Virus record (IMG/VR): IMGVR_UViG_3300021256_000005 | Origin: a virus | DNA: 64,000 bases | Direction: 5' to 3' (one strand) | In this document: piece by piece, positions 2,026 through 46,560 of the stretch | Numbering within the stretch: the stretch's first letter is position 1 | Layout of the letters: each line of letters starts with the position of its first letter | Made by a program: the position numbers and the translations under genes | The notes under the pieces: model-generated | The model's database searches: none | What the model was told of the DNA's origin: nothing | Seen by the model: the letters and a program-made list of their open reading frames with translations, nothing else

Positions 2026-2232
2026 TTATTTTTTAATGATTTTACGTTGCTGATAAACTTGTCCATTATCATCCATCAACATACACAAATCAGACTGTAG
2101 TGTATCGGAAATACAGGCAGAAGATAATTCTCCATGGTAGGCAGATTCTGCTTTATATGCGTCATCATATCTAAAAATTGCCTGAGTTGTTTCTCCTGTT
2201 TTTGTGGTTTGAATAATAATTAAAAAATACAT
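2026..2232 (-). CDS. Small hypothetical protein (68 aa)
   Basis: The start was moved to MYFLIIIQ, which is preceded by AAAGGAAAG. The longer track ORF overlaps the fibre gene end. Confidence 0.5.
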   Translation of the reverse strand: MYFLIIIQTTKTGETTQAIFRYDDAYKAESAYHGELSSACISDTLQSDLCMLMDDNGQVYQQRKIIKK

Positions 2233-2245
2233 AATATCTTTCCTT

Positions 2246-5200
2246 TTATGCTTGTTCTGCCATATAAAAACCATGAACAATAATCCAGTTGGAAGGATCA
2301 GCGGTTAAAACAATCGAACCATATCTGTTAACAAATAAGTAGCATGGAGATTTTTTACTTATATTCATTGCAGTTAATGGCGTGTCTGCATTGCCCCAGT
2401 TTTTGCTCGCAGGGATTGGAAGACCAGTTAACACAGCCGATTCTGTAAACCCCGCTTCATCCATATGAATTACCAAATGTACAAATACAATTCGTCCAAC
2501 TTGTTTATATCCACCAATGACAGACGCCAGACGTTCATTATATATAGCTGGCTTTTTGAGTGATGATAGTGTTAGAGTTGACCAAGACAAATCTAATAAT
2601 CCAACGGAGTTATATGAATCAGTTCTTGCAACAACATCTTTGGAGACATATAACCTTCCATCTATATCAACATGACCTTCTGTTCCAGTAGTAACAATTT
2701 GTAAATTGCCGCTGCTCAACCCTGCGTTTATTACATCAGTATAAACAGTTCCATCCCAACCAACACGCATGGCTGTGTTATCTATACCAACTGATAACGC
2801 AAATAATCCGTCTGAATTTCCAACGGCTGTAATATCATTATTACCATCCCATCCGACTCGGATACCACCAATTGTACGGATATTGCCTAATGAATCAATT
2901 TCAAAAGTGTATTTTCCGTTTGTTTGTTTTGCTCCAAGAGTCATGTTTGCTGTTGGATTATAAGCGACATATGAAATACGTACCATAGAAACTTTTTTAT
3001 CAGCAAAACTTTTAGCAGTAGTAGAATCCAAAGAAATAGCCTGATTAGTTGTTTGAATCGTAGCAGAAATTAAATTGTCTTGATCTTGCGTCATTCCAAC
3101 AATTTTTACGCCTTGCGTGCTATTTATATTATCTAATTGATATTTTAAGTTAAAATTGGCTATATATGTAGAATTTTCAATGTAATAATCAAATGGCAGT
3201 ATCTCATTGATAATCCTTTTATCGCTTGATTGATTCAATGTGATATTAAAATAATCTGTTTGACTTGATGTGACTGCTTTTATTCCACTCTTGGTGATAG
3301 ATAATTTAGAATTGTCATTCGACAATAAATCAATTCCATCCTTCCCAAACTTCGCCACAGGGTTACTATCAACATATATTGACACCCCATCACTATTCAT
3401 GTTCGTGAAGTTCTTCAAATCATCTGCATTATGAACCGTAATACCATCAATATCAGTGATGGTAGTAATGTACTTAGAGGTCTTTGTAGCAAGATCTTTC
3501 GCTGTATTTGCAACCTTTGTAGCATCATCAGCTGTTTTCTGAGCTTTAGCAGCATTATCTTTCGCCGCAGTAGCAACCGTACTAGCATTATTCGCCGTAT
3601 CTTTTGCCGCATTAGCCGTACTTGTCGCTGTTTCTGCCGTTGATTTAGCTGTATTTGCGGTACTATTGGCTGTTTGCGCTAACGATTTTGCGTCAGTTGC
3701 TGTAGACTTCGCCGTATTAGCTGTACTCGTTGCTGAGTCGGCAGTGGATTTGGCGGTATTTGCTGTTTTGTTAGCTGTGGTCGCTGTAGTGTTGGCTGTA
3801 TCAGCTAAATCTTTTGCTTCGATGGCTGTGTCGTCAATTTCCTCGAGACGGACGTTAGTTACCCAAGTAGTACAATTTTCAGAATTGTAATAATTTGTCA
3901 AAAATCCTATTTTAATAAATGCAGTGCCTGGTCTAAAACCAAAAGTGGGATACTCTACAGTTGTAACATTTAAGAGATTATCAACATTTGCCGATGCTGA
4001 TATCCAATCTGTTAAATTATAATCAACATAAAAATACATCCAACCATTACTATCACTTATTTGAGAAACTTTTGTTCCTGCATCAAAATGACCATGTGAC
4101 CACGGGGAAGATAAAGTAATATCATTTCCTGAAAAACTTGATTCTCCAGACCATAAGTTAGACCAATGATTTCTACTATATGTTTCTTCCAGATATTGAT
4201 ATCCATATGAATTTTTATAATTCCAAAAAATTAATCCATGTTCAAAGGAATAATCAGTCTTTTTATTAAATCCATCTGTACTTGTTAAATGAACAACGGT
4301 GTCTCCATCATTAAGATCTTGTGCTAGTGTTGTAAGTGAGTTCTTATAATGTCTCACATCTGTTGCACGAATTTCATATCCATCAATATCATAGCAACTT
4401 ATCCCTCCATAAAACGCTGATAGAACACTTGATTTAGCATTGACCGAAATTTTGTAATGTTTATTTTTATCTACTGGAATTTTTTCAGTTAAAAGACGCT
4501 TGGCACGATTACCAGTACACTTAAAGCTTCCGCAAGATCCGTTATAACACGTGTATCCATCATATTCAAAATCAGGAAAGTTATAATTATTTCCAAGAAT
4601 TCCGTTGCCATTTGTAACTAAGTTATTCCCTCTCGACAACGACTTTTGGTTCGCATAATCAGCCGCATTATTGACATAATCCGAAATCGCCGCATCACCG
4701 ATCTTTAACTTTGTAGCAACAACAGTTCCGTCATACAACACTTGAAATGGAGCGGCGGTAGAAGTAGTAGAACCCGCCCAAAACGCTCTTGAACTATCTC
4801 CAAGTCCCACCTGATTTGTACCGTCAGTCGCAGTAAGAGTATCCGTACCAATTTTCCATCTGCCGATTGTACCAGACGTAGATGTGATAGTTCCTTTGAT
4901 AGATGCCGCACCATCTTTCACAGCAAAGTTCGGTGTAATAATATTGCCATTTGACAAGTCAAACAATGAGCCTTGCTGTGAATATACAGAACCGCTTTGA
5001 TAATTCGTAGATTTCAGTGCATCCGTCTTAATCTTACCGCCCTCGATAATTGTAGATACACCATTTGGGGACTTCACGACAAACTGTTTTGTCACTGCTT
5101 CAAGCATTTTATCAGTAAGCGTGAGAGCACTACTTGTTCCGTTAACGGATACCATCATCCCGATTTTATCTGCATTTTGCTGAATCTTTGATGTCAGGTT

Positions 5201-8146: not shown

Positions 8147-8641
8147 TTACTGTTCGTCAAATGCGCTTAATACGTCTAAATCATCAAGTTCAATTGCAGA
8201 ATTTTCTTTCAGCGTATTGACTAATTCATCAATTTTTAATGTAGTAAATTCATACGTATTCTTTTCCGCTAAAACAGATTGCAGTTCAGTGTTTAATTCT
8301 TCAGCACGTTTTTTGTACGCATCTACGAACTCAGGCTTTACTTGTCGCAGTGATTCTGTTACCACATTACCTTCTGCGTCATGGATTTCATTCCCTTGTT
8401 CATCTAATTTTGGCTGATGAATTTCGTCTGATTTTTCTTCCCCAAAATATTCAGACTTAAAGTCATTGACTAAACCTTCACGGAATGTCTTAAACTTTTC
8501 TACATCGCCCTGCATCTGTTTGATATTGTTGAGTAATTTCCACTGGATTTTAATTGGCAGTTCTTTGATTTTATACATTTTGAACTTGTCAAACCAATCA
8601 TTCATCGTAATTGCATCTAATAAACTCAACTCTTTTGTCAT
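8147..8641 (-). CDS. Acidic hypothetical protein (164 aa), possibly a fibre/baseplate accessory
   Basis: Good RBS (AAGGAG). No catalytic motifs recognised and no HUH/Y1 transposase motifs. Confidence 0.55.
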   Translation of the reverse strand: MTKELSLLDAITMNDWFDKFKMYKIKELPIKIQWKLLNNIKQMQGDVEKFKTFREGLVNDFKSEYFGEEKSDEIHQPKLDEQGNEIHDAEGNVVTESLRQVKPEFVDAYKKRAEELNTELQSVLAEKNTYEFTTLKIDELVNTLKENSAIELDDLDVLSAFDEQ

Positions 8642-8693
8642 TTTATAAATCTCCTTTTAAATCATTATTATATTTTAATACAGACAAAAATGT

Positions 8694-9935
8694 CTAACTC
8701 ACATTATCTAACCAATAAATCTTAGAATATTTCCAAAGTAATTTGCATTTTCTTGCGTTAACTTTTTTGCAATGTTTTGTTGGACTTTGAAAATTAAGAG
8801 CATTTTGTTCTGGGTATAAAGCTGTTACATACCCTCTATGCGTTTCACCGTTCCTAAAAGTGTACTCAACCAAATCCCTATGTTTAATTCCAAGAACGTT
8901 ATCTGTCTTAGCCTTACTTTGTCTTCGCATAGGTTTTATTATCCATTCTTTAATTTCACATGTGTCTGGTCGCAAATCTGTGATGCATATGGCATCATTA
9001 GAATGTGATTTTGTAATTCCCCACTCAATACGCTTATTTGCCGTATCACCTCCGTTTGTTAAATGTAACATTCCTAAATTTGATAACTGTTCTCTCAGCC
9101 ATTTTTTACCTACCATTACATGCTGTGCGTAATTCAGATTCTTATTATCAGAAGAATTTAACAAAGTAAAGTATCTGTTCATATATAATTCTTCTACGCC
9201 TTCTGTTTGCTGATGACATTGTGTACATAATGTAATAAGATTACCAAGTGAATTGGAACCATTCAGTCTTCTTGGTTTAATATGGTGTACCTCTAATCTA
9301 CAATTAGATTTTCCACATTCCATACATTTGCAACCATCTCGTAAAATTACAGCTTTACGAGTATTTTCGTCCAATTTATTTGATTTTTGATATTGCCACC
9401 GATATGGTTTATAACCATCTGTCAATGCTCTTATATCAATGGCAACATCTTCTAACCAATAATTCGTTATATTTATCCATTTATTAAGTTGATTGATCAC
9501 TCTTATTGTTGCTTGACGTTTTTGTAAAATACTTGGTGCAATTCTCCCTTTTCGTTTAGAAGATTTTCTGTTATTAAATCTCGCCTGTCTATATCTTTTA
9601 TGATAACGGTGATAACGCCTAAATCCACGCCTAATGTCCATAAGATGTTTTACATCATTACGCTGTTCAATGATTCCTTTAAAAACTACTTTGTTTGTCG
9701 TCTGACATTTCTGTACTAATGCGACACCAATATGAAGACCGCCGTCATCTATTCCACAACGGATTTCATCTTTACAGATTTCTTTATCTGAAATTTTCTT
9801 TTTAAGCTGTATGACCATTGGATATTTGCTAACCAATGTTGCTCGTTTCTTACGAATGAGAAACCAAGCCTTCTGTTCTTTAGTTGGTGCTAATTGTTTA
9901 TTATTAGCATCCAATACAAAAGCATAATTTGTCAT
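8694..9935 (-). CDS. iscB: IscB RNA-guided nuclease (PLMP domain, split RuvC with HNH insertion, TID)
   Basis: PLMP-like N terminus ([15 protein letters not shown] ... RATLV). RuvC-I is [14 protein letters not shown]. An Arg-rich bridge helix follows ([22 protein letters not shown]). RuvC-II is APSILQKR ... [11 protein letters not shown] is CMECGK ... LEVHHIKP ... [10 protein letters not shown]. RuvC-III is [14 protein letters not shown]-like C terminus is present ([10 protein letters not shown] ... GETHRGYV). I placed the start at MTNYAF, which is preceded by AAGGAAGG; the track ORF extends to 10010. Confidence 0.9.
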
Positions 9936-10254
9936 TTCTGACGCCTTCCTTTCGGAGTATTTTTCTTCGTGCCAATATCGAGTAGAGGACATGTGTTTCC
10001 CTGTTGTCAATGCATGACATTAGCATTGTTTCTTGGTTTGCACTCACAGAGCTTCAGACTGAAGATTACATCTAAAGGTGTGTCTTTACCTTACTACTTA
10101 ATGTAGTTCATATCTGCAACATATCTTTCGATAGTAGCAGTCACTTAGGCTCGAAACCTATTGTTAAGCCATAGACAAGAGACTTAATGTGTCCACTCTT
10201 GTCTATGTTCACGTACATATTTCTATGTTTTTGATTACTTAACAATTAGTCCTT
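9936..10254 (-). ncRNA. Candidate omega-RNA (HEARO-type) of IscB
   Basis: In IscB loci the omega-RNA lies directly 5' of the ORF on the same strand. This roughly 320-nt block is ORF-free and helix-rich, for example a 12-bp stem catagacaagag/ctcttgtctatg at 10171-10208 and cttcag/ctgaag at about 10053-10065. Confidence 0.6.
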
Positions 10255-13200
10255 TTAATCGTTTTTCTCAAATCTACACTGAAAAACAGCGTTTATTTTA
10301 ACGTCATTTGCTGTCACTTGAATGGATTTCGCCCCTGTCGAGTGCTGATCGTTCCAGTAGAGATCCGCATCAGCATCATTACTTTTACGCTCCCAGATAA
10401 AATACTTTGCATCAAACTGATCGGTCACGTCCTCAGAATTCTTCATCAGCTTTGCTTTCAACGTAATTTCGCCAGTGCCGATATTCGTACCATTTGGGGT
10501 ATCAATATACACTTGATAGGTTTGGCTGTTTTGAATATCCGTATCCAACTGTTCTAATTTGTCAGCTGTATTGTTCTTAAAAGACGTATATTCTACACCG
10601 AATTGGTTGCCGTTACCATCATATACTTTAGCAATATCAATACCGCCGTACTCATTTGGCTCGATAATGTCAAAACCAAGTTTGTCTTTGGACAAAGAAT
10701 TGTCTTTGACCATATCGTTATCAATCAAACCGTCAGCAATAGCATCCTTTGTGATACCATCTGGTGACAATACAACTGCGCCTTGTGGATTACGCAAAAT
10801 CAAAGATGGTTGATTGGAAGTATCATAGCCAAGTTGCACGCCAACATAAGACTTTTGTTTGCCATCTGTGTCAACATATTTACCGCTGATCTGAAGCTTT
10901 GTGCCATCCATTACCATTGCGCCGTTTTCAGAAATGATACGCATTTTATCCGAGACTGTAATGTCTCCTGCCGATAAGTCTGCAACGGTCAGTTCTTTTG
11001 CAATGCCTTTAATAAGAGTGGCTTTTTGGGCGATTAAATCATCCGTCAATTGCTTGTCAACAGTCAAAATATTTGCATTAATAAGTTGTGCCGTAACAGC
11101 GTCAGCGGATACTACTTTGGATGATAACTTGTCAAAAAATGCTTGATCTGCATTTAACAAATTGGTTTCAATTACATTTGCTGTCACCATCTTAGATGAA
11201 AGCTTGTCAATATTCGCTTGATCTGCTTCTAACAGTTTTGTAGAAATCGTGTTTGCTGATAAAAAACTACCAGTCAACGTTCCAAAATTTTGTGAAACGC
11301 TATTACTGATAGCACGATTAACCAGTCCGTTACTTAATAACGACCGAATCATTTCTGGTGTAAAGATATAGTTAGAAATTGTATCAGACTGATTTAAAGA
11401 ACCTAATTGAATACTGTTTTTGGCACTCCTAATAGAATTATTTAACAGGTTTGAAAAATCATCTCTATGGTTTTTATAGTCTGTTATGGTAGAAAATGTA
11501 ATAGTAAGCCCACCGTCATAAATACACGGATTATATGACATACTTACAATACGCAATGTTAGAAACGTATCGTCAGAAATTTCCACATGTACAAATGAAA
11601 ACAGCTTTAACGGTTCATATATATTCTTAAATTCTTCAAGCCCGACAATGTTATTTACCGTATCTTTCCAAGTGTATTGCGGATGTGCATACTGATATAG
11701 TTGATCTGTTGCTTGATATAATAAGTCGGCATGTTGATTCAAAATATCTTGCGTATTCATCATATCGGTAATAATGATATTAGAATCTTCAATATCGGTA
11801 TGCTTATATAAAGATTGCAAAATACGTTCTTCTTCATCAGTAAAACCAAAAGTTTTTCGTTGTACGCTATGCGCAATATCATTCATCTGCTTCTGATAAC
11901 CAGTCATAGCAGAAACCGCATTATCATATTCTTTGGTTCGTTTTTCCAATTCAGCTTTACAAGCGTTGTATTGCGTCTCATAATCTAAATACAGCTGATG
12001 ACACTGCGAATAGTATGTATATGCACTAACGGTTGGTTCTTCTGGTTTCTTATATTCTTGCAATCGCACAAGATTATTTTGATATACTTCCAACAGATTT
12101 TTTAATTCTGTGACACCGTATAATTTATAATCTGTTTTATAATTTTTAATTTCATCTTCTGACTGTTGAAAATATACAAAGTCTGACGGTGAAGATATAT
12201 CTCCACGCTCCAACATAACACCACAAATATCAAATGTTGTGTTTAACTCGTCCCCAAAGAAACCAATCTTCAAAATAGGCGTAGTAGTGTCGGATTGTAC
12301 GACAACCTTCATAAACTGTCGAGTCCACGTTGTAGTAACAGGCATGGAAGCACATTTATCTTTTGTTGGTGTTTCATCTTTGTTGCTTGCATATACATAA
12401 ATCAGTATCGCACTAGAAGAACGCACATAAAAACTCAGCATATAAGTAGTGTTATATGCGTTTAAGTTACCCTGTGTGATACCCCAAAAATCCGTATTAC
12501 CAGAAATTTTGGCATATGAAGTAATACCGAATACTGGCGTATTGTTTTTCTTTGGCGTATCTTCTGTAACTGTCACAGCAAACGTTGTTTGTGCATCTGT
12601 CTTATCCCAGTGGTCACTACTAGAAAATGTTGCATTTGAAACAATATTTCCTGTACCGTAAGAAATGATTTTACTTCTCGTATCCGTAGTAATATCATCT
12701 TTGTTTTGTAACGCACTAATAATAGACGGTAACACATAATTCATTGTTTGCTCATATAAAGACCAATCCGCAGAATTTTTTAGCGCATTAAAATCAAAAT
12801 TTCCATCAGAATCTACATATGTATTTTCTAACGCTTTAATAATGGCTGTGTTGTCTGTATAAGCAGTCTCTAAGTCTGGCGTGTCCATGTATTCCCAGTC
12901 ATTACTTACGGTGTCATTCGGAACTCTTGTATCAAGTTCAGTAACGACTTTTTGACTATCCATATACTGTTTGATTTGTTCAACGTATTTTGGACGCTGT
13001 TCATCACGAAACTTTACCCATGAATTATATTTATCAATAAGTGTTTTCGGAACAAACTTTTCATCCATAAAATATGAATAATCTTCAATATCGGAATCGC
13101 CAAAGTTGGAATACAAAACATTGCCAAATCCATCACCACCACGAACTGTAGCAGAAGTATATAATTCGTTTGCTTTTGTAGCTTCGATATTTTCTTGAAT

Positions 13201-14055
13201 ATTGCGCCAACCGATAAACACGTTTGTATCTTCGCCAATATTATCTACATAAGTAGCATTGATTAAACGATTATCAGTATCAAACGTAAAAATACATTGA
13301 AAAGCCTGTGATACATCCTGCGTTAAAAAAGAATATACATCTTGATTATCAACGGAAAATGCGTATACTTCATTTGGCAAATATACTTCACGTGTTGTAC
13401 CGTCGTATTTTTTTATAGTCCGTGGCTTTGTGTCTATTTTTCCAATTTTCCACAAACCTTGCTCAATATTGTCAACCCAATTTTCATGCATTACGCCATT
13501 TTCATCATACGTGACAGTAGAAGGAATAATACCAGACTGAGCCAATATAATATGTAACAAGGATCTTTCTGGGTGTATATCATCATAAAATACAATTGGT
13601 ACATATACTGGCTGATTCGATTGCTGTAATAGGTCTTTGTAAAAATCTTGATCTTTATATTTGTTATAAAACCGCATCATCCAGTCGTTTGTGTTGCCAG
13701 TACCGACTTCAAACTCTTGCAGGTCGAAATTCTGCAACTGAATCTCCGCAGACTCCGCAACAACTTCAAGATATTCCGAACGCTTTCCATTGTTTACAAT
13801 CTTTGGTGCTTCATTGATGATGTACCAAATACCATCGACATATATCTGCATCATTTCAACGATAGACGTATAAAATGATGAATCAATTCCGTCAATATAC
13901 CGATCAACTTCAAACGATAATTCTGCCGTATTCTGTGCATTTAGATTAACAACAACAGATGATTTTTTAACACCGTTTAGCGCACCTAATAACCGCCGAT
14001 CAGAAGTAGCGAGATAAATTTCATTCTCGTCTGCTTTACCATTGAAGTAATACAT
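10255..14055 (-). CDS. Tail-associated lysin / tail tip protein (Tal; prophage-tail-endopeptidase-like N terminus, 1266 aa)
   Basis: The N terminus (MYYFNGKADENEIYLATSDRRLLGALNG) is typical of siphovirus minor structural proteins. The gene follows Dit with a 1-nt overlap. The C-terminal half contains coiled-coil fibre repeats (LLNADQAFFDKLSSK and similar). Confidence 0.8.
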   Translation of the reverse strand: MYYFNGKADENEIYLATSDRRLLGALNGVKKSSVVVNLNAQNTAELSFEVDRYIDGIDSSFYTSIVEMMQIYVDGIWYIINEAPKIVNNGKRSEYLEVVAESAEIQLQNFDLQEFEVGTGNTNDWMMRFYNKYKDQDFYKDLLQQSNQPVYVPIVFYDDIHPERSLLHIILAQSGIIPSTVTYDENGVMHENWVDNIEQGLWKIGKIDTKPRTIKKYDGTTREVYLPNEVYAFSVDNQDVYSFLTQDVSQAFQCIFTFDTDNRLINATYVDNIGEDTNVFIGWRNIQENIEATKANELYTSATVRGGDGFGNVLYSNFGDSDIEDYSYFMDEKFVPKTLIDKYNSWVKFRDEQRPKYVEQIKQYMDSQKVVTELDTRVPNDTVSNDWEYMDTPDLETAYTDNTAIIKALENTYVDSDGNFDFNALKNSADWSLYEQTMNYVLPSIISALQNKDDITTDTRSKIISYGTGNIVSNATFSSSDHWDKTDAQTTFAVTVTEDTPKKNNTPVFGITSYAKISGNTDFWGITQGNLNAYNTTYMLSFYVRSSSAILIYVYASNKDETPTKDKCASMPVTTTWTRQFMKVVVQSDTTTPILKIGFFGDELNTTFDICGVMLERGDISSPSDFVYFQQSEDEIKNYKTDYKLYGVTELKNLLEVYQNNLVRLQEYKKPEEPTVSAYTYYSQCHQLYLDYETQYNACKAELEKRTKEYDNAVSAMTGYQKQMNDIAHSVQRKTFGFTDEEERILQSLYKHTDIEDSNIIITDMMNTQDILNQHADLLYQATDQLYQYAHPQYTWKDTVNNIVGLEEFKNIYEPLKLFSFVHVEISDDTFLTLRIVSMSYNPCIYDGGLTITFSTITDYKNHRDDFSNLLNNSIRSAKNSIQLGSLNQSDTISNYIFTPEMIRSLLSNGLVNRAISNSVSQNFGTLTGSFLSANTISTKLLEADQANIDKLSSKMVTANVIETNLLNADQAFFDKLSSKVVSADAVTAQLINANILTVDKQLTDDLIAQKATLIKGIAKELTVADLSAGDITVSDKMRIISENGAMVMDGTKLQISGKYVDTDGKQKSYVGVQLGYDTSNQPSLILRNPQGAVVLSPDGITKDAIADGLIDNDMVKDNSLSKDKLGFDIIEPNEYGGIDIAKVYDGNGNQFGVEYTSFKNNTADKLEQLDTDIQNSQTYQVYIDTPNGTNIGTGEITLKAKLMKNSEDVTDQFDAKYFIWERKSNDADADLYWNDQHSTGAKSIQVTANDVKINAVFQCRFEKND

Positions 14056-15216: not shown

Positions 15217-18200
15217 TTACCTCAGTCCTGTTTTTCGTATATCTTGATACATACGCTTTGAAGTATATTCATAGCTTTGTTCAAGTAAATCTTTTACCTT
15301 TGGATATGTTTCAGCATCAATACTACCTTCAACATTTAACAAACTATCATAGTGAATATTGATATTTGGAACAATCGTAGTAGCCTTACGTGTTGTATTT
15401 ATCAATTTCTGCATACGCTCTACAGAATCAATAAAATCTGGAACGCTATTCTGCGTGAACGATTTCGGAAGTACCATTTCACCATATTGCGCAGTAATAA
15501 TACCATCGTCACCATTCATTAAATCAGATAACGGAATCAGCCGATCAATAACACCGCCTTGCGAATACCCTTTGACACCACGATTATGCAATGCGCCCTT
15601 AAATTCTTTTGAGTAGATTTTATTGTTCTTAACATATTTCTTGTAAGATTTTTCATCATACTTAAAGTCTTTAATAACGCCAGTTGGCAAATTTACTCTA
15701 CGTACAATAGAATTTTTTCCTTTTGTATTAAAGAATAAATTACCATGGCTATCCACTGTTCCTTGCACACCGTTCATCTGAACTACAGTACCACCAATAA
15801 TTCCTGCTTTTCTAAGAGAGTTCAAAGACAACTTCTGGAATTTCTTAGCGTCTGGCGTATATGAGTTAATAATTGCCAATACTTTTTGCCGTATTAACTT
15901 TTCGGCTTGTTTTTGTTGAACTGTCTTTGCTGTCGATTTTTTCTTAGCAGTAGTAGTTTTTGGTGTGGTTTTAGTAGTAGTAGGAGTAGTAGTTTTTGCA
16001 GGAGCAGGAGCGGGTTTTGGTGCATTATAAACATAATCACCACTTGCGTTGTCTTTCCCTTTAGATGCGTTTGTGTTAGTTTTACCAGCGGTACTATCTG
16101 GAATTGAAGTATCTGTTTTAACAGTAGGCGTATCTAATGTAGCAGAATTGTGTGTGTTCAAATCACCGCTAACATTACGTCCCGCATCAGAAGCAGTGTT
16201 GATATTTGTATGTACAGGTTTTGTCTTATTGTTAAGACCTTCTGTAGTTGTACCAGTCCGTTTAATAACATCATTGATATAATTATAGGCATCATCATAT
16301 TCCGCTTTTATCTTATCAAGCATATCCTTGACAATATCAATCTGGAACTGACTATTTGTTTTTAATTGATCTAATGTGTTATTCAGTGCTTTATTGGTAT
16401 TGTTGGCAAGATCGTCATAACCATCAGAGATCAAATTGATTTTATGACTACGAACCGTATCGTCATAATCTTCCTGTGCATCTTTTAACTGCTGTTGCAA
16501 TTGCAGTAATTTTGCCGCACCTGCTTCACTTGAAACACCTTGCAAAGCGGCTATTTCAGCTTTTAACTGGTTAATATCTTTATTTTTATCTTTGAGAGTT
16601 TTATTATAATCATAATAATCCTCTTTTGCAGATAAAGCAGATTTTCTCAAGTTGATATTATCTTGCAACACCTGATTCTCATTTTGAATCTGTGTCTGAT
16701 AAATATTGATAATAGACTTTTTGAGATTTTCATTCGACTCAACGGCTTGCTGAATACTTTGTGTATATTCAGACATACGCTCCGTCAATGTCTGTTCAGA
16801 TATTTCACCAGATTTGTACAGCTTCTGAATAGATGCAATGCCATTTTTCCAACTCTGAATTGCGTCAATATTTTTATTGATCTGTTCGCCAATCAATAAT
16901 AATCCCGCATATCCGCTACGATTTAATTCGCCCGCATCCGAAACAAACGTATCACTATCAAGTAGGTTAAACAAATGAGAAGCATCACGAATATCATTTT
17001 GAATCTTCGTAATCGCACGTGTAAACTTATTGACAGCCGTATTGACTATATTGTCAACCTGTTGGTTAATATCTTCACCAACTGATAAAATCTGTGAATC
17101 AACGTCACTAATCTGTTTTGCTAAATCTTGATATTTTTGACTGTTTGGGTCATAATCATCAAGCTGTTTTACCATTTCAGCACGCTGATCTCGCAACGCT
17201 TTTAAGTAAGATTGATTGTTCTGAATCGTCAGTTGAGCGTTTTTAATAGCATCATTATCCATCGTATCAAACGATGCATGTTTTGATGTATTATAAGTCG
17301 CAACTGCTTTCAGTCCATCGGCAATACGCCCGAATTTATCAACCACCCACTGTTTTAATGTGAGTCTGATCTCTTTCATCTGGTTAATCAATTCTTGTGA
17401 CGTATTCTTTGAGTCAATTACCTGCTGTTTGATTTCATTATATGTAGCTTTAATGCTCAGATAGTATTCACGTTGTGCTACATATTCATTTTTAGAATCA
17501 GTAACTTTCTTCTTGTCTTGTGCTGTTTTTGCCTGTTGTTTGCTTAACGCCTTTTTATCAGCTTTTACCTTTTTGGAATTTTTACCATATTTCTTTTGGT
17601 CTTTTGCTAATTTAGCTTGCAGTTTCTTTTGCTTCTCAACATCTTTAGCGTACTGCTTCGTTGCTTTTGTGTTAATAGTATTCGTATCACGAACCGCTTT
17701 ACGAGCATTAACCATTTCTTTTGCATAAGCATCTTGCTCTTTTTCGTATTGAGAAGTAGCTTTATTTTGTAAACTATGTTGTTTCGCTAAATTGCTATAA
17801 TAACTTCCAGAAATATTTTTACCCTGATTTTCGAGAAGCTGATTAGTAGATTCGTAAATTCCTTTTTCAGTCGTGTAAACATTAGCAGAAGTCTCATAAT
17901 ATGTTTTAATATTATCAAGACGTTGCTGTTCAATATCCGCAATCTTTTGTTGCCATGCAATCTGTTGATCTACAGCTGACTGTGCTTTATCATACCAAGA
18001 CTGATATTCATTGATTAACTCTTTGGTGACTGGATTTTTAATCTTCTGAATTGCCTTATAGTTTCCATCACGTACAAGTTTTTTGTATTTCGATGAAAGA
18101 CTAGCAGTCACAGAATATTGTTTGCCATTCTCTTTGAATTTTACAGTACGTTTTTTTACAGAAGCATCGGCTTGCTTCATATACCGTTTAGCTGATGTGG

Positions 18201-21200
18201 TTGCTTTTCGGTAAGAATCTAACGCAAGGTTATATTCGCTCTGCAAATTTTTCTGACGACTAGTAAAGCTATGTGTAGTATTGGTAGAATTATTATTGTA
18301 CCGATCTAACCGTGTATTCACACGATCAATCCACCGCTCAATCCAGTCATGCAAGTTATCAAATGCTGACGATAATTTATCAGCCGCTTTGCTAAGTTTT
18401 TCCGAAGAACTTAAAGCCTTGGAGTTACCTTTACCGCTAGACTTAGATTTAGACTTAGAAGAAGATTTTCCAGACGATTTACTCGATGATTTACTTGACG
18501 ATTTAGAGGTTGATTTTGACGAAGATTTAGAAGAAGTTTTCTTCTTCTTTTTTTTCGGGTTAGAAATTAAACTAACATGTCCAGTATCACGATTTGCACT
18601 ATAGTATGCAGGAATAGAGCCGTGAGCAAAAGAACCAATCAGTCTGCCGTGTCCTTCGTTAGATGTAACGTATCCATTCTTTAATAATTCAGCAGTTTGC
18701 TTGTGGTTGAATACAATATCGCCAGATTTTAACGACTCAAAATGCGCTCCACCATCTAATAAAGACCATTTTCCATTACGAACAATTGATTCTTGACCAA
18801 TTTCATTGACCAACGCTTTTTGATCTTTTTGTATTGTCACATCTGTGCCGTTGGCAAAGGCGTGAAAAGAACCGTTTGCTTTCGTCATAAATAACGGCTG
18901 TGTACCAGTTGGCACGTTTACCGTTGCCGCATGACCTGTCACACCAATACCCGTTTTACCAGGATATTTATATGCTTTCCCATCACCACTGGTAATACCA
19001 GTGCTACCAACTTTCACGATAACTCGTTTCGTAATTGGTTGACCTAACTCATTAAACAAACTAAAAATATTGCCAGTAGAAGCAGATATTTTGACTGTTT
19101 TATCATGCAGTGCTTTTCTATCTACACGTTGTATAATTTTAGTTGCTAAATCTTTCGCTGACAACTTAACCGTTTTATCTTTAGGTTTCTTCTTGTCAAT
19201 TTTATCAACTTTTTTACTAGCGTTGTCTTTAACGGAAATCGTAAACACTTTATCCATATCAAGACCAGCCGCTTTGAACACCTTATCCAAATTCGACTTG
19301 TCTTTTTTACTCATGGAAATTTTTAACGTACTTTTTCCTTTTGAGTTAATTAACCCCGCAGACTGTTCAGCTTGTAATAACTGATTGTACTGCGATGTAA
19401 CAATACCATTACTAGAATCACTAAGTTTTCCTTTTTTGGTTAATAACTTTGACCAAGAAGTAGCGGTGCTTGATACGTCTTTGGAAACCGTCTTATATTT
19501 CGACTTTGCAGATTTATTATCACTCTTATTAAGTGCTTCTTTATAAGCGTTTAAATCTTTTGTCGCATTAACAACACTAGAATCATCAACTTCAACTTTT
19601 GTCTGAAAAACTTTTCCGTCACTTGCTAAAAGCTGATCTAAGATTGTTTTATCATCCGATTTAACGTTGATTCCCAGATCGAAACCAATCTGATTACCGC
19701 TCTTGTTATAAAGATTTTGTAATGTCCTTGCGGAAGACACCAAATCTTCTTTAACCGCAGACTTTGTTTTATTGCTAACAATTCCGCCTTGTTTAATGGT
19801 GTCTTGCACAGACTGATAAGAATTATACTTACGTCTCAGTGTTTGTAACGCTGTGATCTGTTTCTTTTGATCTTCCGTAGCATTACTGGTATCAGCGTTC
19901 ATATAACTTGATACATATTTATTACTAGCATCCGCATTTTGACGCTTATTATAGTTTAACATCTGTAAACTATGTGTGTAATATTTGACTTTATCCCAGT
20001 CCGCAGAATCAAATTCAGATTTCTTCGTGAGTTTACCGTTATCTGTTAATTTAGCAAGTTCATTAGCAACATCTGTAATTTGTTGTTTTGCTTTTTGAGG
20101 ATCTGTAACATTAAAATCAATACCAATAGTAGTGACGCCATCTGCTTGCAGATCTTTTTTGTCTTGCTCAATACGTTTCTTTAACTCTTTTGTGCTAACT
20201 GGTTCATAATCAAAATGGATTTCAAAACCTTTTTCTTTTAATTCAGATAAAAGCGTATCATAAAGACTTGAACTAATACCCATCTTTTTAGCGGCAGTAT
20301 TAGTATCCATATTAAGGTTATAACCATTTTTATCGTCTTTTTTGAATACACCTTTCGCTATCGCATCTTGAATAAAATTATTTGCACTATCAGTGGTATC
20401 AGAACCAAACCAACGATTTAGTTTACTCTTTACTTTTGTTGAATAAGATTTAGCAAATTTATCAGCATCCCACTTGTTTACATCTGTATCATCTGGGAAA
20501 AACATGCTAACAAACTTTTGAAATCCTTCGTTGCCCCAGTCATGATTGTTGTACAACTGTTGGATAGATTTTTTTGCAGATCGAATAGTATCACTTTGCG
20601 CACCGTACGAACCTGCGCTAATAGCCGTTTGCCATTGATTGAACTTTGATGTAAGAGCAGTGTAAGCAGATACTTGTTGTTCGACTTGACCAATCTCGTC
20701 CTTCAGAGTATCTTGTTGGCGCAGTAACCTTAATTTTGTTTCACTGTCAGTCGTATTATTAATAGATTTTGTAACATCATCATATTGAGTTCGTAAATCT
20801 TCGAGTTGAACTGATGCATCTTTTAAATTAGTATCTGCATAGGCAGAATTTAATTCATTCAAAGACTTAACATTCAGCTTAATACCATTGGCAGAATTTT
20901 CAAAAAGTTTATCTGTATTTAGCCCACTTTCAGAAAATAAACTTGTCAGATTACTAATCGAAGTGGAAGATAACCCCGTAGAAGAATTACTTTCTTTTAA
21001 TGCAGTTTCAATATTAGATATATTCTTTTTTTCTGTATCTAAATCGAACGGAAGAGTAAATCCACCCGTAATGGAACCCATCGAAGATGCGTAATTATTT
21101 ACGGCTTCTGCGGCAGATGTAGCACCACTTACTGCTTCTAGCCATGCTTCTTTTTGAGAATTAGTAAATTTGCCTACATACTTATCAACGTCAATCCACT

Positions 21201-24200
21201 TACCACTTAATAATTGCACATATCCAGTTTGTTGATAAACAGCGTTGTTTGCTTCATCAAGTGATTTTCCCGCAGAAACAAACGATTGTTTCATTTTATT
21301 TAATGAATTAGAAGTAGTTGTAACGGTTGCCGTTTCCCAATTATTGTTGGATAATGGTTTCCGTTCAAATATGTCTGCTTGTAGCGACTTTTTAACACGC
21401 TTGTTGACATTTTCAACATCAGCAATTCCAAGAGATTCTTTTAATTGATCGACAGACGGAGCATTAGAACCTTTTAATCCAGATTTTAATATATCGACAT
21501 CTTTATCGAGCAGAGATAAATCTTTACTGGTTAACTTATCTTTATTGCTCATTTTCTTCTTGATAGAAGCATAAGCATTTGTTAATTTGTCTCCACCTTC
21601 ATTGATGCCTTCAGTAAGATCACTAACATATGAAATAACAGCCGATTTCGGATTGCCACTAGACATAATATTCTGAATAGCATCCGTACTCATATTATTA
21701 ACTAAATCAGAAGCAAGAGTGCGCTGTTGTTCATTTAATTTTTGATAAGTACCGTCTAAGCCTTTTAAGTATCCAGTAATTGACTGTTTTACTGTCGAAT
21801 TAGCCGCTTCGAGTGTTGCTTCTCTTGTTTTGATTGCTGATTGGATAGCGTCAGAAGTAACTTCATCGCCATTTGTTACACCAAGTAATTCCTTAATGGC
21901 AGGATCTTGCGAACCCTTTTTGATTTTATAATCTTTGAGTCGTTGAATTTCACCAGTGATACCAGTGTACTTCATCAACTCATCATATTGTTCGCCTTTT
22001 GCACCAGAAGCAAGTATATAACCTTCGGCTTTTTGCTTTTCGTCTAATTTTGTGTCGGCTTTATAAGCTTTAACAACGGAATTAAAACCAGAATTTTCAA
22101 TATCGTCACTACCATTAAAAGCAGTAGCGTAAGCCGTTTGTTGCTCTTTTGCAAGTGCATCATTTAAGCCTTCAACGTTGCCTTTAAGGTTTACGATAGC
22201 GTTACCTTGTGCGTCATATCCAGATACCAGAGTAGGATACATACTAGCAATTTGATTGCTAATATCTAAATATCTTTCATACTGATCGGTAGATAAAGAC
22301 AAATTTTGGTTTTGATCTCCAACCCCTTTAGACAACTGCATATATTCATCTTTAAAAGCGGAAACCTGTTCGCTATGTTGACGATAATTTTCAAGCTGTG
22401 TCTTAGAGGTTGTCATCATGTCTGATGTAGCTTGTTTAGCTTCGGCTTTTGTAACGATTGCTTTACTAACAGCAGTCATTACAGCTTCGATACCAATAGA
22501 TGCCGCCGCCATAATACCGCCAGTAGCTAAACCAGAAATGGCATTCGCACCAAAATTTTTCAGAACACCTTTAATACCGTTGTTAGTCAATGAGTTATTA
22601 TAAGAAGTACGTGTCTCATTCTCCTTCTTAATAAGCTCATTTGTTTTACCAACTACAGCGGTAACAGACGCTTCGCCATCGAAAGATTTCTTCGCTTGTT
22701 GAGCAAGTGCTTGATGTGTTTTTCCTGCATCTTCAATGGATTGTCCGTTCTTCTTTAAGTCTGCAACTTCCTTTTCCCATTCATCAGCCGACTGAGACAT
22801 TGCACGTTTGATGGAGTCAGAATTTTCCGTAACCTCTGGAAGCATAGGGAGAGGATTTTGTTCACCGTTCCAGAAACGAGAAAAAGCACCTTTAACACCT
22901 GCGCCAGTTTCTTTTCTGGCTTGTCTGCGCAGTTGTTGTTCAGATTTCCGCTGATCGACTGGTACTTGTGCTTGTCCTGTCAATAATTCTTGATAACGTG
23001 ACTCTGCTAGATCATTATGATTACCTACATTTTGCGCAAACCTTTTTACATCTTTAACAATGTTAGTATCTTTACGTTTTGCACGGGTGTAACCAAAAAC
23101 AGTAGCCATCATGCTTAATCCAGTCGGAACAGCACCCATCGTACCCCAAATTTTAGTTACGATATTTAATAATGCCGTACCACCAGAAACAGCATCTTTC
23201 AGACCATCAGAATCAAGAAAGTTCGCCCAAAATTTCTGTTGTTGATTTTTGAACGCTTCTAATCGCCCACTCAAACTGTCCTGAACAATTTTAATATCAC
23301 GATCAGAATATCCCGAAGAGTTCTTAGAGGATTCATAAACATCCTGCAACATATCACCATTTTGTAAAATGGATGCCACGATAGATGCTCTATTTTTACC
23401 GCCCAGTAACTCAAGTAATGCCGAACTACGGTTTGTGCCATACTTTTTATCTTCTTCTTGAATCTCGCCGTATACTTTGGAAATATCTAACAAGGTTTCA
23501 TATACATCTTTATATGAACCATTAGCCTTTTCCATACTTACGCCCTGATAGCCGTTAGAAGCTACCGCCGTAAGTTTCATCAAGTCAGCATTGATTTTGG
23601 ATTGTGTTTGAGGAACGCCACTAGTATCCTCGCCTTCAGCTTTTAACTGTTCACCAGAAAGCTTTGTTCCCTGTAAACGAAGTGCGATGGTTCTTAAACC
23701 AGTACCAACTTGCTCAGAGTTCTGAATAATTGCATTGCCCGCTACAGTCAGAGCATTTGCTTTATCCATGTCGATTCCGAGGGCGGACAATGTGCCAGTA
23801 GAACGCTGTAAAGATTCCGCTAATTCTTGCGGCGAAATACTAAAGTTATTACCAATCTTACTCAGCTTGTCTACAATGTCCTTTTTGCTCATATTTTTAT
23901 AAGCCTGCGACATTGATACAAGCGAAGTAGTAGCATCGTTTACATTTTCAAAGTCAGAGATTTTATATAAAATCGTTGCTTCTTTTGCTGACTGCTGTGC
24001 TTGACTTAAATTTTCACCAAGTCGCATCCAATCGGTTGTAGATTTTTGAATATCCAAACCATTTGCAGATGCTTCTTTGGCTGTTTTAAAACTATCAACT
24101 TTGGCGAATTTTTCAAGCGAAGAATAAGAATCATTCGATACAACCTTCATTTCTGTCAGTGCATCATCTAATTCTTTTACAGTGTTGATTCCCTGTTTCA

Positions 24201-28531: not shown

Positions 28532-29971
28532 TTACATATTGATTTTCATATTTTTTACAGCGCAAACAACTCTAGCTGTTTTTAGCTTATTACATAAAAC
28601 ACGTTCCAGTTGCGCCTTGAAGTTTAATCGAGTTTTTTCATCTGAATGAACTAATACAATTTTTTGTGTGTTAATAGAAGAGTAGTATCTTAATAAATCA
28701 TAATATTGCATATGTGAAGAAAACGATTTTAAATTCACAATTTGTGCTTTGTTTTTAACAAATGTATTATTAATATTAAAAGATTTAATATGACCTTCTT
28801 TAATATATCGTGCAAGAGTGCCTTCTCCTGCATAACCAATAAAAGCAATACAATCTTCTGGATTAGGCAAAATACTTTTTACCCATGACACGCTACGTCC
28901 CGCTGTCAACATACCAGAAGAAGCTAATATAACAGCACTTCTGGTGTTTTCTAAGTGATACACGCTATCCTCTGGCGCAACAATCCGAATAATATTTTGC
29001 CAATTCATCATATCGTCAAATTTTTCTTTTGCTTCGCCAGTTAAAATTTCACCATACGCATCTAGTAATCGATTAGCCAACGGACTATCTAATAAAATAG
29101 GCACTTTGAAATCTTTATCGTATCCAAACATTGAAAATAAAATCCACAATATGTACGGAAACCTATCTAATGAAAACGTGGGGATTAGAACTCTGTGATT
29201 ACGCTCTACACAATATTGTTCTATGACAGTCCGTAATTTAACTTTATCTTTTACTTGCGATGGTGGATTATGTGCGCATCCGTATGTACACTCACCAATT
29301 ACTATGTCCGCACTAGTAACAGGCTGAAAATGTTCAACAAAAATTCTGGTATCTTCTGTCGCAAGATTACCAAGGTCAGACGTAAACAACACTTTATGAA
29401 TTTTGTTTTTATGCACTAGCCACATTTCTGTTTGCTGTGATAATAAAATGTGACCCGCAGGAGAGTAGCGGATTTGCATATCTTCATACACTGGATAAAT
29501 AATATCACATTCAACTTCTTCAATATGTTTAAGTGCGGTCTTTACATCATCTTCTGTATATAGCGGTTGGCGTTCTTGTTTTGAAGAATACATCTTGTTG
29601 ATTTGCATAACATCACGCTGATTGATAAATGCACAATCCATCCACATTTCTTTTAAGATTCTTGTTGAGTTTTTCGGTACGATAATGCGAGCATTACAGT
29701 TATTGCGATATAATGCGGGAATTAACCCGACATGATCTACGTGGCAATGTCCAACTACAATAGCGTCTATTGTCTTTGGTTTAATGTCTTGCAGTATCTT
29801 TTGATTTAACACATAATTTTCACGGATATTATGTTTTTCTTGTATCAGTCCACATTCAAATAAATATGTGTGTTGCATTGTTAAAATTTTTGAACATGAA
29901 CCAGTTACACCTAATGCATTACCACCTATAATTTCAATTGTCGTTCGTTTTTTGTTAAAATTTTTGCTCAT
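28532..29971 (-). CDS. Metallo-beta-lactamase fold, beta-CASP-type nuclease (RNase J/CPSF-like)
   Basis: HxHxDH motif (VVGHCHVDHVG). Downstream His/Asp motifs and a C-terminal SSH motif fit beta-CASP proteins. The size, 479 aa, also fits. Confidence 0.75.
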   Translation of the reverse strand: MSKNFNKKRTTIEIIGGNALGVTGSCSKILTMQHTYLFECGLIQEKHNIRENYVLNQKILQDIKPKTIDAIVVGHCHVDHVGLIPALYRNNCNARIIVPKNSTRILKEMWMDCAFINQRDVMQINKMYSSKQERQPLYTEDDVKTALKHIEEVECDIIYPVYEDMQIRYSPAGHILLSQQTEMWLVHKNKIHKVLFTSDLGNLATEDTRIFVEHFQPVTSADIVIGECTYGCAHNPPSQVKDKVKLRTVIEQYCVERNHRVLIPTFSLDRFPYILWILFSMFGYDKDFKVPILLDSPLANRLLDAYGEILTGEAKEKFDDMMNWQNIIRIVAPEDSVYHLENTRSAVILASSGMLTAGRSVSWVKSILPNPEDCIAFIGYAGEGTLARYIKEGHIKSFNINNTFVKNKAQIVNLKSFSSHMQYYDLLRYYSSINTQKIVLVHSDEKTRLNFKAQLERVLCNKLKTARVVCAVKNMKINM

Positions 29972-43105: not shown

Positions 43106-43683
43106 CCTATTTCTCCTTTTGACATATTAAAACAACTATTGAGTGATATTTCTATCTGCCAATATATATCTTCATACATATTCAGACACGTAGCATATAA
43201 CAGCCGAGCAGTCGGGAGCGACCCAACTGCTTTGTTATACCTATAAAACTACGGATAGACTGCTTACTATCACCTTTTACACACCTTTCGGCACAAATAT
43301 CGTTTTGTTTTAGAATGTACTTGTATAAAAAGCCTTGTGCTACTCAGACCAAACTCCAACGTTATACACGCATTTCTGCGCTTCACGGCTCTACAGATTA
43401 TTGATATTCCGCAGGTTTGATACAGTCATCGGCTAAACCCTAACTACGGTTATTGTACACAGTACCGTCTATTGCTCTGTCCGTCTCGTTTGTTCCTTTG
43501 TATGCGACACATATTGACACATATTCTTGATGTTGAGATTCTGTCTCTCCTTGCACAATATCACTATTATGCAACAGCAATAAACACAAGGTATACCTCA
43601 TGCGCTTACTGATCTTCCGAACATTCTCAGCACCGTTGGTTTCACGGCTCTGCACTGAGTTACTCAATAGCTGTTTTAATGTT
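43106..43683 (-). other. About 580-nt ORF-poor, helix-rich non-coding block upstream of the packaging genes (candidate ncRNA, leader or pac region)
   Basis: The block lies between a strong terminator at 43684-43719 and the 42068..43105 gene. An 11-nt direct repeat ttcacggctct occurs at 43382-43392 and 43641-43651, and multiple hairpins are present. Confidence 0.4.
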
Positions 43684-45054: not shown

Positions 45055-45448
45055 TTTTTACATCCATTTCTGCAACAAAACGCTGTTTTGGTGAATACTC
45101 ATTAAACTTGCACGGTATTAACACACCACCTGAAGTAACCTTCCTAAGTTCTTCAAATGATTCATAAGTACAGAATACTATATCATTTTCGAGAAACAAA
45201 TATTCTCCATTCTTTGCTCTTGCGGGTTCAATCCATAATTCATCGTTGCAAATTGTCACATAATATCCACCTCCATAATCATAATAGTCCACTTTTAATA
45301 ATTTAATATCAAGTTTTCTATTAAAATTACGGATTAAATAAATAACACAATCAACAATATCTTTATCTGGACACACGAAACTTACATTATAATCACTACT
45401 CAGTTCAATAATGTTGTCGTATAAATTCTCATGATCTTTAAAAATCAT
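45047..45448 (-). CDS. Hypothetical protein (133 aa)
   Basis: The ORF overlaps the cysteine desulfurase stop by 4 nt. Confidence 0.55.
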   Translation of the reverse strand: MIFKDHENLYDNIIELSSDYNVSFVCPDKDIVDCVIYLIRNFNRKLDIKLLKVDYYDYGGGYYVTICNDELWIEPARAKNGEYLFLENDIVFCTYESFEELRKVTSGGVLIPCKFNEYSPKQRFVAEMDVKND

Positions 45449-46560
45449 AACCTTTTCTCCGTTAAATCACGAAGAAATCCTGTGATTTGAATTAACTTAT
45501 CAATCACATAATCAATTTCTTCTTTTGTATTAGTATAATAAAAACTAAATCTTACACAGGTATAAATTTCTGGCTCTTTCATACCTATAGCTTCTAACAC
45601 GTAAGATTTCTCAAGTACATTAGAATTACAAGCAGAACCAGTCGATGCGCAAATTCCAATATTATCTAGCATAGAAACGATTGTATTTCCATCACAACCA
45701 TCAAATTGTACGTTTACAATGTGCGGAGACACGTTCTCATTTAACACTACATGGGCGTAAGGTATTCTGCTGACACAATCAACAAAATAATCATGCAAGT
45801 CACGCATATAATGTCTAGGTTGACATACAATATCTTTTAATGCTACAGATAATCCAACGATTGCCGCTGTATTCTCTGTACCACCAACTAACCCTTTTTC
45901 TTGATGACCATGAATAATCGTGCGAAGCGGAATAGAAGAGTACAATACAGCCGCACCACGAATACCGCCTATTTTATGCGCACCAAACGTGAATATATCA
46001 ACATGTAAGTGTCGAATGTTTACAATTTCATATCCAATTGCTTGCGTAGCATCACACATAAGTACATGATTATACCGATGCGCTATATCCGCAAGTTTAC
46101 AAATTGGCTGAATACACCCAGTTTCATTATTAACATATTGCACAATCACCAAAGAATTAGCAGGAGCGTGCTGACAAAATTCCTGATATGAAGACATATT
46201 TATCAATCCATTACTATCGACTGGTAAAATGTAAGAATTATAAGACTGTACACATTCGATAATATCAACGTGTTCTACTGCCGAACATAAAATATGCACA
46301 GAAGGATGAGATTTCATATAGCCTTGAATTGCTATATTATTTGCAGTAGTAACTGAGTTAGTAAAATAGACGTTTTCTACTTCACCGCGTAGAATATCAG
46401 CAATATCAGCACGTGCCTTTTCAATCGCTTCACGTGATTGTTTTCCTAACGAATGAGTTGAATTTGGGTTTCCGTATATTGTTGTCAGATAAGGCGTAAT
46501 TGCGTCTAACACGTGTTTTGAAGGCCGTGTTGTAGCCGCCTGATCGAAATTCACTCTCAT
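45445..46560 (-). CDS. Cysteine desulfurase (class V aminotransferase, NifS/IscS-like)
   Basis: A PLP-lysine context (FGAHKIGGIRGAAVLY) and a catalytic Cys loop (ASTGSACNS) are present. The N terminus has GNPNSTHSLG. Confidence 0.85.
   Translation of the reverse strand: MRVNFDQAATTRPSKHVLDAITPYLTTIYGNPNSTHSLGKQSREAIEKARADIADILRGEVENVYFTNSVTTANNIAIQGYMKSHPSVHILCSAVEHVDIIECVQSYNSYILPVDSNGLINMSSYQEFCQHAPANSLVIVQYVNNETGCIQPICKLADIAHRYNHVLMCDATQAIGYEIVNIRHLHVDIFTFGAHKIGGIRGAAVLYSSIPLRTIIHGHQEKGLVGGTENTAAIVGLSVALKDIVCQPRHYMRDLHDYFVDCVSRIPYAHVVLNENVSPHIVNVQFDGCDGNTIVSMLDNIGICASTGSACNSNVLEKSYVLEAIGMKEPEIYTCVRFSFYYTNTKEEIDYVIDKLIQITGFLRDLTEKRL

Follow-up and report, generated by a model that had tools for sequence, protein, structure and literature searches.

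A putative IscB element with an omega RNA in the tail operon of a phage, and a guide predicted from the 3' end of the preceding gene

Locus and IscB protein

A 64,000-nucleotide (nt) stretch of the IMG/VR virus record IMGVR_UViG_3300021256_000005, called the window below, carries a predicted IscB element that consists of an omega-RNA region and an iscB gene and is inserted between two genes of a phage tail operon. The order on the minus strand is a 1266-amino acid (aa) tail-gene open reading frame (ORF; 10255-14055), the omega-RNA region, the 413-aa iscB gene (8694-9935) and a 164-aa gene (8147-8641) with its ATG at 8641 and a ribosome-binding site that adjoins the element. The TAA stop codon of the tail gene occupies 10257-10255 (minus strand), and 319 nt (9936-10254, minus strand) separate this gene from iscB. 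An earlier reading of the window, made from its letters alone and referred to here as the original prediction, had placed the stop at 10255-10257 and had named 9936-10254 as the sole minus-strand space available for an RNA; both match the ORF map. Matches to large terminase, tail proteins, holin, amidase and tail-fiber PHROG entries around the locus mark the window as phage DNA. The tail gene matched a PHROG tail fiber entry (3.8e-17) and is preceded by a DUF6558 phage tail protein and, before that, by a very long ORF of 3679 aa in the tape-measure position (15217-26256, minus strand). The gene order and the PHROG match, its sole support, suggest the label "Tal" for the tail gene.

Judged by its sequence, the intact 413-aa protein (ATG at 9935) is an IscB with an HNH domain inserted in a split RuvC domain and with intact catalytic motifs, from which we infer cleavage itself. 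Pfam RRXRR (PF14239, 3.3e-46) covers residues 6-184 and Pfam HNH (2.3e-10) covers residues 204-243. An N-terminal PLMP/RRXRR domain is followed by RuvC-I D63 in the motif IDDG (residues 62-65) and by an arginine-rich bridge helix at 102. RuvC-II E162 (LEDV), H217/H218 and N232 of the HNH domain, and RuvC-III H311/D314 (SHSNDA) are all aligned and identical in HfmIscB (PDB 9K2Z), which a phmmer search against the PDB aligned with residues 4-411, a span that takes in the C-terminal motif-interacting region (E = 4.4e-201, 69% identity over 408 aa). OgeuIscB (7XHT/7UTN) was a more distant match (E ~1e-22, over part of the length). An exact-protein database look-up of the IscB with two alternative starts returned no record.

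The omega RNA and its predicted guide

Folding of positions 9900-10270 gave -96.1 kcal/mol, compared with -72.1 ± 5.7 kcal/mol for dinucleotide shuffles (z = -4.24), and 0 of 100 shuffles were as stable, in line with the original description of the region as structured. When the whole window was scanned with Rfam at the gathering threshold, ROOL was the sole match and HEARO was not reported. In a sensitive Rfam scan, HEARO (RF02033) matched minus-strand positions 9957-10193, the place and strand expected of an omega RNA for this iscB, with E = 0.0012 over 1 kb and a score of 28 bits, the cut-off being 83. Within this match the alignment is good at the nexus motif and poor in the first domain. 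A group I intron or another RNA class, considered as candidates for the structured region, were without Rfam support in the sensitive scan.

The alignment used for the consensus fold consisted of 13 diverged copies of the RNA from different insertion sites. The RNAalifold consensus has 85 pairs in 13 helices, with 98.6% of cells paired. Two-sided (compensatory) changes were found at 25 of the 85 pairs, a number reached by 0 of 500 shuffles (7.2 ± 2.0), and only 1-4 compensatory pairs were counted when the registers were slid by 1-3 columns as a control. Together with the weak Rfam match, the fold and covariation delimit a HEARO-type scaffold at 9947-10253 (minus strand), the 3' end of which falls 12 nt short of the iscB ATG (9935) on the same strand.

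From its 5' end, the scaffold begins with stem P1 (10252-10237 with 10169-10154), which closes around a hairpin at 10228-10215 and a 12-bp stem (10207-10196 with 10181-10170). The original prediction had already noticed this 12-bp stem and had given it as 10171-10208; it is real and is kept in all 13 copies, with compensatory changes at 4 of its pairs, and its true span of 10207-10170 differs by one base. Further 3' are the long-range or pseudoknot pairs of GCC (10150-10148) with GGC (9973-9971), which covary to GAG/CUC and GUC/GAC, then a hairpin at 10140-10114, a long stem (10102-10089 with 9988-9977), the nexus hairpin (10082-10045) and a hairpin domain (10043-9993). Two small hairpins (9968-9957 and 9956-9947) complete the 3' end, and the second of these overlaps the iscB ribosome-binding site. 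The closing stem around two hairpins, the long-range pairing, the hairpin, the long stem, the nexus hairpin and the hairpin domain have one-for-one counterparts in HEARO. The gaps upstream of iscB in Staphylococcus Herelleviridae phages, ~272 nt long, align to the same core and add further compensatory changes in the same helices.

The covariation indicates that the structured region is a genuine omega RNA of the IscB class and is structurally constrained. The expectation that such an RNA would lie 5' of iscB on the minus strand is borne out by both the location of the HEARO match and the covariation among the 13 copies. A blastn search found no second copy of the element and no solo omega RNA elsewhere in the window.

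Three gut-phage contigs (L001, at 3001-3376 and ~2862-3004, L002 and L023) contain an internal-deletion derivative of the element with both ends intact. This derivative is situated at two other sites and consists of the omega RNA, ~95% identical to that of the window, plus the first ~19 and last ~31 codons of IscB. It appears from its sequence to be a protein-less, RNA-only element that would need IscB in trans. Its content also bears on the idea that the structured region is a mere 5' leader controlling iscB translation and that IscB is a protein-guided HNH homing endonuclease working without an RNA guide. The overlap of hairpin 9956-9947 with the ribosome-binding site would suit a leader, as would the name "HNH endonuclease" given to homologues in phage annotations. 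We regard this explanation as very improbable: a ~300-nt HEARO architecture with covariation exceeds what a leader needs, the protein is a full IscB close to one of solved structure, and the deletion derivatives retain the RNA and lose the protein.

The 5' limit of the scaffold is also the limit of conservation. Columns 1-16 of the alignment are unconserved across the 13 copies, and conservation starts at column 17, which corresponds to the first conserved base, A10253; stem P1 begins at G10252. At ~15 distinct 5' junctions, the sequences upstream of (A)GGACTAATTG are unrelated and everything downstream is conserved. Because conservation and the first stem begin at 10253/10252, the predicted guide is the flank at approximately 10254-10269 (minus strand; 5'-GAGAAAAACGAUUAAA-3'), which lies outside the element and for which a length of 16 nt was assumed from characterised IscB systems. 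As DNA, this flank (GAGAAAAACGATTAAA) comprises the last four codons of the tail gene, its TAA stop and one further base. Since the scaffold starts one base past the tail-gene stop, a guide of ~16 nt would have to come from the last codons and the stop, and no leftover segment within the element could serve in its place. Our reading is that the locus encodes an omega RNA with a guide derived from the 3' end of the tail gene, and we give it a probability of roughly 0.85.

The original prediction had put the guide at about 10240-10270. The part over the stop region, 10254-10269, agrees with the flank found here, and 10240-10253 is scaffold, comprising its first base and the 5' strand of P1. The guide was also said to lie at or beyond the left end of the transposon; it does fall outside an end of the element, which is the right end by the IS605 convention (PMC10055086). 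No sigma-70-like promoter for the omega RNA was found on the minus strand at 10254-10800, a weak negative. The first 20 nt of the element (AGGACTAATTGTTAAGTAAT; 10234-10253, minus strand) have TAA stops in all three frames, so any upstream ORF entering the element ends at once.

Element ends, insertion-free sites and the AGGAG motif

The whole mobile element spans 1598 bp (8656-10253, minus strand) and encodes only IscB. Its omega-RNA strand begins with AGGACTAATTG and ends with GATTTAAA, each boundary being ambiguous by ±1 nt. Its limits are defined by ~17 independent insertion sites with sharp ends and by insertion-free sites that fall into four families. We traced a 30-nt core of the RNA region to three bacterial genomes, to two gut-phage contigs in GenBank and to 28 contigs of IMG/VR. 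Identity to the window element is 77-90% among full-length copies, the starts and ends of which coincide. At the sampled 5' junctions the start is always (A)GGAC, although the flanks differ, and after iscB there is a conserved AT-rich tail of ~40 nt.

An imperfect palindrome over the iscB stop codon (8681-8710, minus strand; TTAGATAATGTG...CACATTTGTCTA in most copies) was found by RNAalifold on 12 copies. With 11 predicted pairs and few pairing-preserving changes, it may be the subterminal hairpin of the left end. Any terminal hairpin at the right end would coincide with helices of the omega RNA. A sigma-70-like promoter sequence (TAGACA, 18 nt, TATAAT; 11 of 12 matches) lies in the 3' tail of the element at 8667-8696 (minus strand), facing the downstream gene; its -10 hexamer is not kept in other copies and the site may be due to chance.

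In all four site families, the insertion-free site equals the left flank joined to the right flank, these terms being used in the sense of the omega-RNA strand. The Logan contig L031 is an insertion-free relative of this phage, in which the end of the tail gene is followed by TTAAAAGGAGATTTATAAAATG and then by the same 164-aa gene (98% identical protein). For three other sites, four to six sister contigs per site (L044-48, L052-55 and L056-61) read exactly as left flank plus AGGAG. The search patterns fixed 14-17 flank bases, so identity there is partly by construction, and the junction itself was left free. Across all sites, the two junctions share only AGGA. We considered whether this was a target-site duplication and rejected the idea, because at several sites the bases that precede the shared AGGA differ between the two junctions; insertion is scarless.

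Directly after the element, at 8651-8655 (minus strand), stands AGGAG, the Shine-Dalgarno sequence of the next gene (ATG 8641) and the predicted target- or transposon-adjacent motif; on the top strand it reads CTCCT and lies 5' of the left end. With the site of L051 excluded, the right flank begins with AGGAG, AGGGG or, once, AGGAC at 15 of the 16 sites read. The layout at the sites read is an A, the junction, AGGAG, a further 5-10 nt and then the start codon of a co-oriented gene. AGGAG stands exactly at the junction in all four insertion-free site families. On the top strand, the adjacent motif CTCCT and the end motif of the element itself, GTCCT, are one base apart. From these flanks AGGAG is likely to be the target-adjacent motif.

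The L031 allele (AAAATGAATGATTAAA plus AGGAG) differs from the window by a 4-nt insertion, TGAA (L031 770-800 versus window 10254-10269), which is the sole internal indel in 1.78 kb, and by one substitution. These are the only differences from -46 to +96 of the junction, and they turn the end of the tail protein from KND* into KNE*. The changes may reflect chance, ordinary divergence or escape from cutting. As the tail-gene end of L031 abuts AGGAG and the next gene, the predicted target site exists in nature. The original proposal that the guide would match the uninterrupted junction of the Tal and downstream genes in sister phages was partly upheld: the site is present beside AGGAG in L031 and exact sites are present at the three other loci, while L031 itself matches the guide at 11 of 16 positions. 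Further alleles were sought in several ways. Searches of IMG/VR found no relatives of the 164-aa gene or of the tail-gene C-terminus, and metagenome pattern scans found no further alleles of this junction, occupied or insertion-free. A protein search with the C-terminal 300 aa of the tail gene returned matches of at most 62% identity, too distant for sister alleles.

Several observations weigh against the interpretation as a mobile, RNA-guided element. The HEARO score is far under its gathering cut-off, because the RNA has diverged and its first domain is larger. The 5' end of the RNA, the length of the guide and its processing are all assumed. The AGGAG motif is inferred from flanks alone, and part of its signal reflects the intergenic position, since every gene here has a similar ribosome-binding site. 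L031, the sole insertion-free relative of this phage, has the 11/16 match given above, owing to the 4-nt indel and the one substitution within the protospacer. In contig L003, the right flank, ~60 nt after the iscB stop, appears to be AGGACT, the element's own first six bases; this weakens a simple self/non-self rule and could be explained as a tolerated variant of the motif or as what is left of the end of another element. Lastly, no cognate transposase was identified: among 36 ORFs of the window that were scanned, none matched the Y1 (HUH) TnpA (PF01797), and a recombinase was likewise not found there. Since tnpA is nearby in ~1.5% of iscB genes (PMC10055086), a transposase-free state is the usual one. 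The best explanation of the locus is a non-autonomous IscB element of the IS200/IS605 type and of the OMEGA class.

The manner of mobilisation leaves room for a second explanation, in which the same IscB/omega-RNA element was moved by an IS607-type serine recombinase crossing over at a GG core and not by Y1 TnpA. The sequence (A)AGGA, present at both junctions and at the insertion-free sites, contains GG and fits crossover at a core dinucleotide. In 18 of 22 strains of gut Firmicutes, the TnpB nucleases of IS607 elements use the motif 5'-AGGAG (PMC11061315), and the present element, like those systems, is found in gut Firmicutes genomes. Because those systems also use AGGAG, serine-recombinase mobilisation is a live alternative to Y1 TnpA, to which we nevertheless assign a low probability. 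A survey found no association of iscB genes with serine recombinases (PMC10055086); adjacent and end motifs of 5 nt each that are one base apart, together with a subterminal palindrome, are typical of IS200/IS605; and a recombinase of either type was not found near any copy.

Copies outside the sampled phages were found in three bacterial genomes, those of Sharpea azabuensis (L049), Fusicatenibacter saccharivorans (L050) and a metagenome-assembled genome of "Ca. Scybalousia" (L051). They are 78-90% identical and suggest that the hosts are gut Firmicutes or their prophages. More distantly, phages of the Staphylococcus Herelleviridae encode IscB homologues at 52-60% amino-acid identity. One such copy, in Staphylococcus phage VL10 (L042, ~2230-3770), has neither the AGGAC start nor the 3' tail and has an ORF that continues into the following gene, so that it looks immobilised. 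In phage Golestan101 (L043, 5161-6233), a TnpB gene with OrfB_IS605 and Cas12f1-like TNB domains, annotated "transposase", lies 1.4 kb downstream of the IscB element; inspection of this gene for shared ends or AGGAG gave nothing informative.

The VL10 copy, truncated at both ends and fused to its neighbours, is what would be expected if the IscB/omega-RNA pair had been domesticated by the phage, for example against competing phages or the host, and were now immobile, with the flank "guide" as a relic. The position of the window element in a conserved late operon, without a transposase, is also compatible with domestication. We consider it improbable, more so than transfer by a serine recombinase: the same sharp-ended 1.6-kb unit stands at ~17 different sites, near-identical phage contigs include both occupied and insertion-free alleles, and the internal-deletion derivatives retain both ends and the RNA. 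The many sites, the presence/absence alleles and the end-keeping derivatives therefore argue for recent mobility.

Other features of the window were recorded apart from the element. Between phage genes at 43126-43683 (minus strand) there is a full-length ROOL RNA (Rfam RF03087), which scored 300 bits, the cut-off being 99. Its near neighbours are a class-V aminotransferase/cysteine-desulfurase-like ORF (45445-46560) on the upstream side and, on the downstream side, the ORFs preceding the terminase. A 926-aa ORF (48035-50815, minus strand) matched Pfam RdRP (PF05183, 9.5e-13), the fold of the YonO/crAss-type single-subunit RNA polymerases, and is neighboured by a UvrD-type helicase at 50825-52564. 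An ORF resembling metallo-beta-lactamase/beta-CASP RNases was found among the phage genes at 28532-29971 (minus strand).

Proposed mechanism and comparison with known systems

In the mechanism that we propose for the IscB element, an omega RNA of ~320 nt would be made by read-through from the tail operon, and the transcript would be trimmed so that ~16 nt of flank (10269-10254) stay as the guide. IscB with this RNA would recognise GAGAAAAACGATTAAA followed by AGGAG. A guide match next to AGGAG would be present only without the element, that is, after excision or in a co-infecting sister phage, and there IscB would cut the insertion-free site through its HNH and RuvC sites. Repair that copies from a genome carrying the element would then restore or spread it. 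Where the element is already in place, the sequence after the guide match is AGGACT, which belongs to the end of the element itself and should protect the locus from cutting. A transposase acting in trans and targeting AGGAG would be responsible for new insertions, so that the element would land just upstream of ribosome-binding sites and neither neighbour would be broken.

This retention or homing mechanism has been shown for the IscB and TnpB of Geobacillus (PMC10055086). That the present element currently drives homing between phages has a chance close to even or slightly below it. A broader proposal is somewhat less likely than not: that this IscB family uses the Shine-Dalgarno AGGAG both as insertion target and as nuclease motif, with every copy placed, sense-oriented, in the few bases between a stop codon and the next ribosome-binding site, read-through transcription, neither gene broken, RNA-guided homing between co-infecting phages, and L031 as an escape variant.

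The locus is a natural instance of an OMEGA (IscB) element within a virus, for which sequence alone has yielded both ends, a predicted guide, a likely motif and insertion-free alleles. Should AGGAG truly be the motif, ribosome-binding sites are what the family targets, which would explain how a 1.6-kb selfish element can be harmless in essential phage operons, and RNA-guided homing or exclusion between competing phages would be predicted. Sister genomes with and without the insertion are available, which makes homing or exclusion directly testable. In Staphylococcus Herelleviridae and gut phages, genes that carry the label "HNH endonuclease" are IscB genes whose guide RNAs have gone unannotated. 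The motif preference of a compact, 413-aa IscB close to a solved structure may also interest genome-editing work.

Among characterised proteins, HfmIscB (PDB 9K2Z), compared here by protein alone, is the nearest, and it agrees in length and in the order of its domains. For the RNA, the comparison was made with OgeuIscB-omega RNA and HEARO. As in those, the RNA lies upstream of iscB on the same strand, with a stem that closes a multi-hairpin 5' domain, a long-range or pseudoknot pairing, a nexus hairpin with the motif ACACC...CAGUC...GCUCUGU, and a guide derived from the 5' flank, which is predicted here. The first domain of the window RNA is much larger, at ~100 nt, with a 15-bp closing stem and the 12-bp hairpin.

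The IscB element ISGst5 of Geobacillus (Meers et al., PMC10055086) is likewise non-autonomous, of the IS200/IS605 type and scarless, and has protein-less derivatives. The right end forms the boundary of its omega RNA, and the flank on that side supplies the guide, with the motif at the left-end flank (PMC10055086). The adjacent motif (TAM) of the Geobacillus elements is nearly the same as the motif at their own end (TEM) (PMC10055086). The window element shares the ISGst5 layout, with its omega RNA at the right end and a motif at the left-end flank that resembles the motif inside the right end. It differs in that the ISGst5 motif is the AT-rich TTCAT, whereas the motif here is CTCCT, the complement of the Shine-Dalgarno sequence. 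It differs further in that its hosts are phage genomes and its insertions are always sense-oriented between genes. The IS607 TnpB/RAGATH-18 systems of gut Firmicutes (PMC11061315) have in common with it the 5-nt motif AGGAG and the same kind of host bacteria, but they involve a TnpB without HNH, another RNA and a serine-recombinase transposase, and their motif lies on the opposite side of the target.

In having a nuclease gene inserted between conserved genes of a phage, the locus also recalls the free-standing HNH/GIY-YIG homing endonuclease genes of the T4 Seg/Mob type (PMC13565253). A free-standing phage homing endonuclease is expected to cleave the allele without the nuclease gene in a co-infecting relative, after which repair copies the gene in (PMC13565253). 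In contrast to that type, recognition here would use an RNA guide and a short motif, self and non-self would be told apart by the presence of the element and not by substitutions, and the element has discrete transposon ends and many unrelated insertion sites. In the searchable literature, we found no description of this IscB family in phage operons, including the "HNH endonuclease" copies of Staphylococcus Herelleviridae, nor of its strict location after a stop codon and ahead of the next ribosome-binding site, where AGGAG seems to serve as the motif. The IscB/omega-RNA class is already known, and residence in phage operons together with the AGGAG placement would be a modest extension of it, not a new kind of system.

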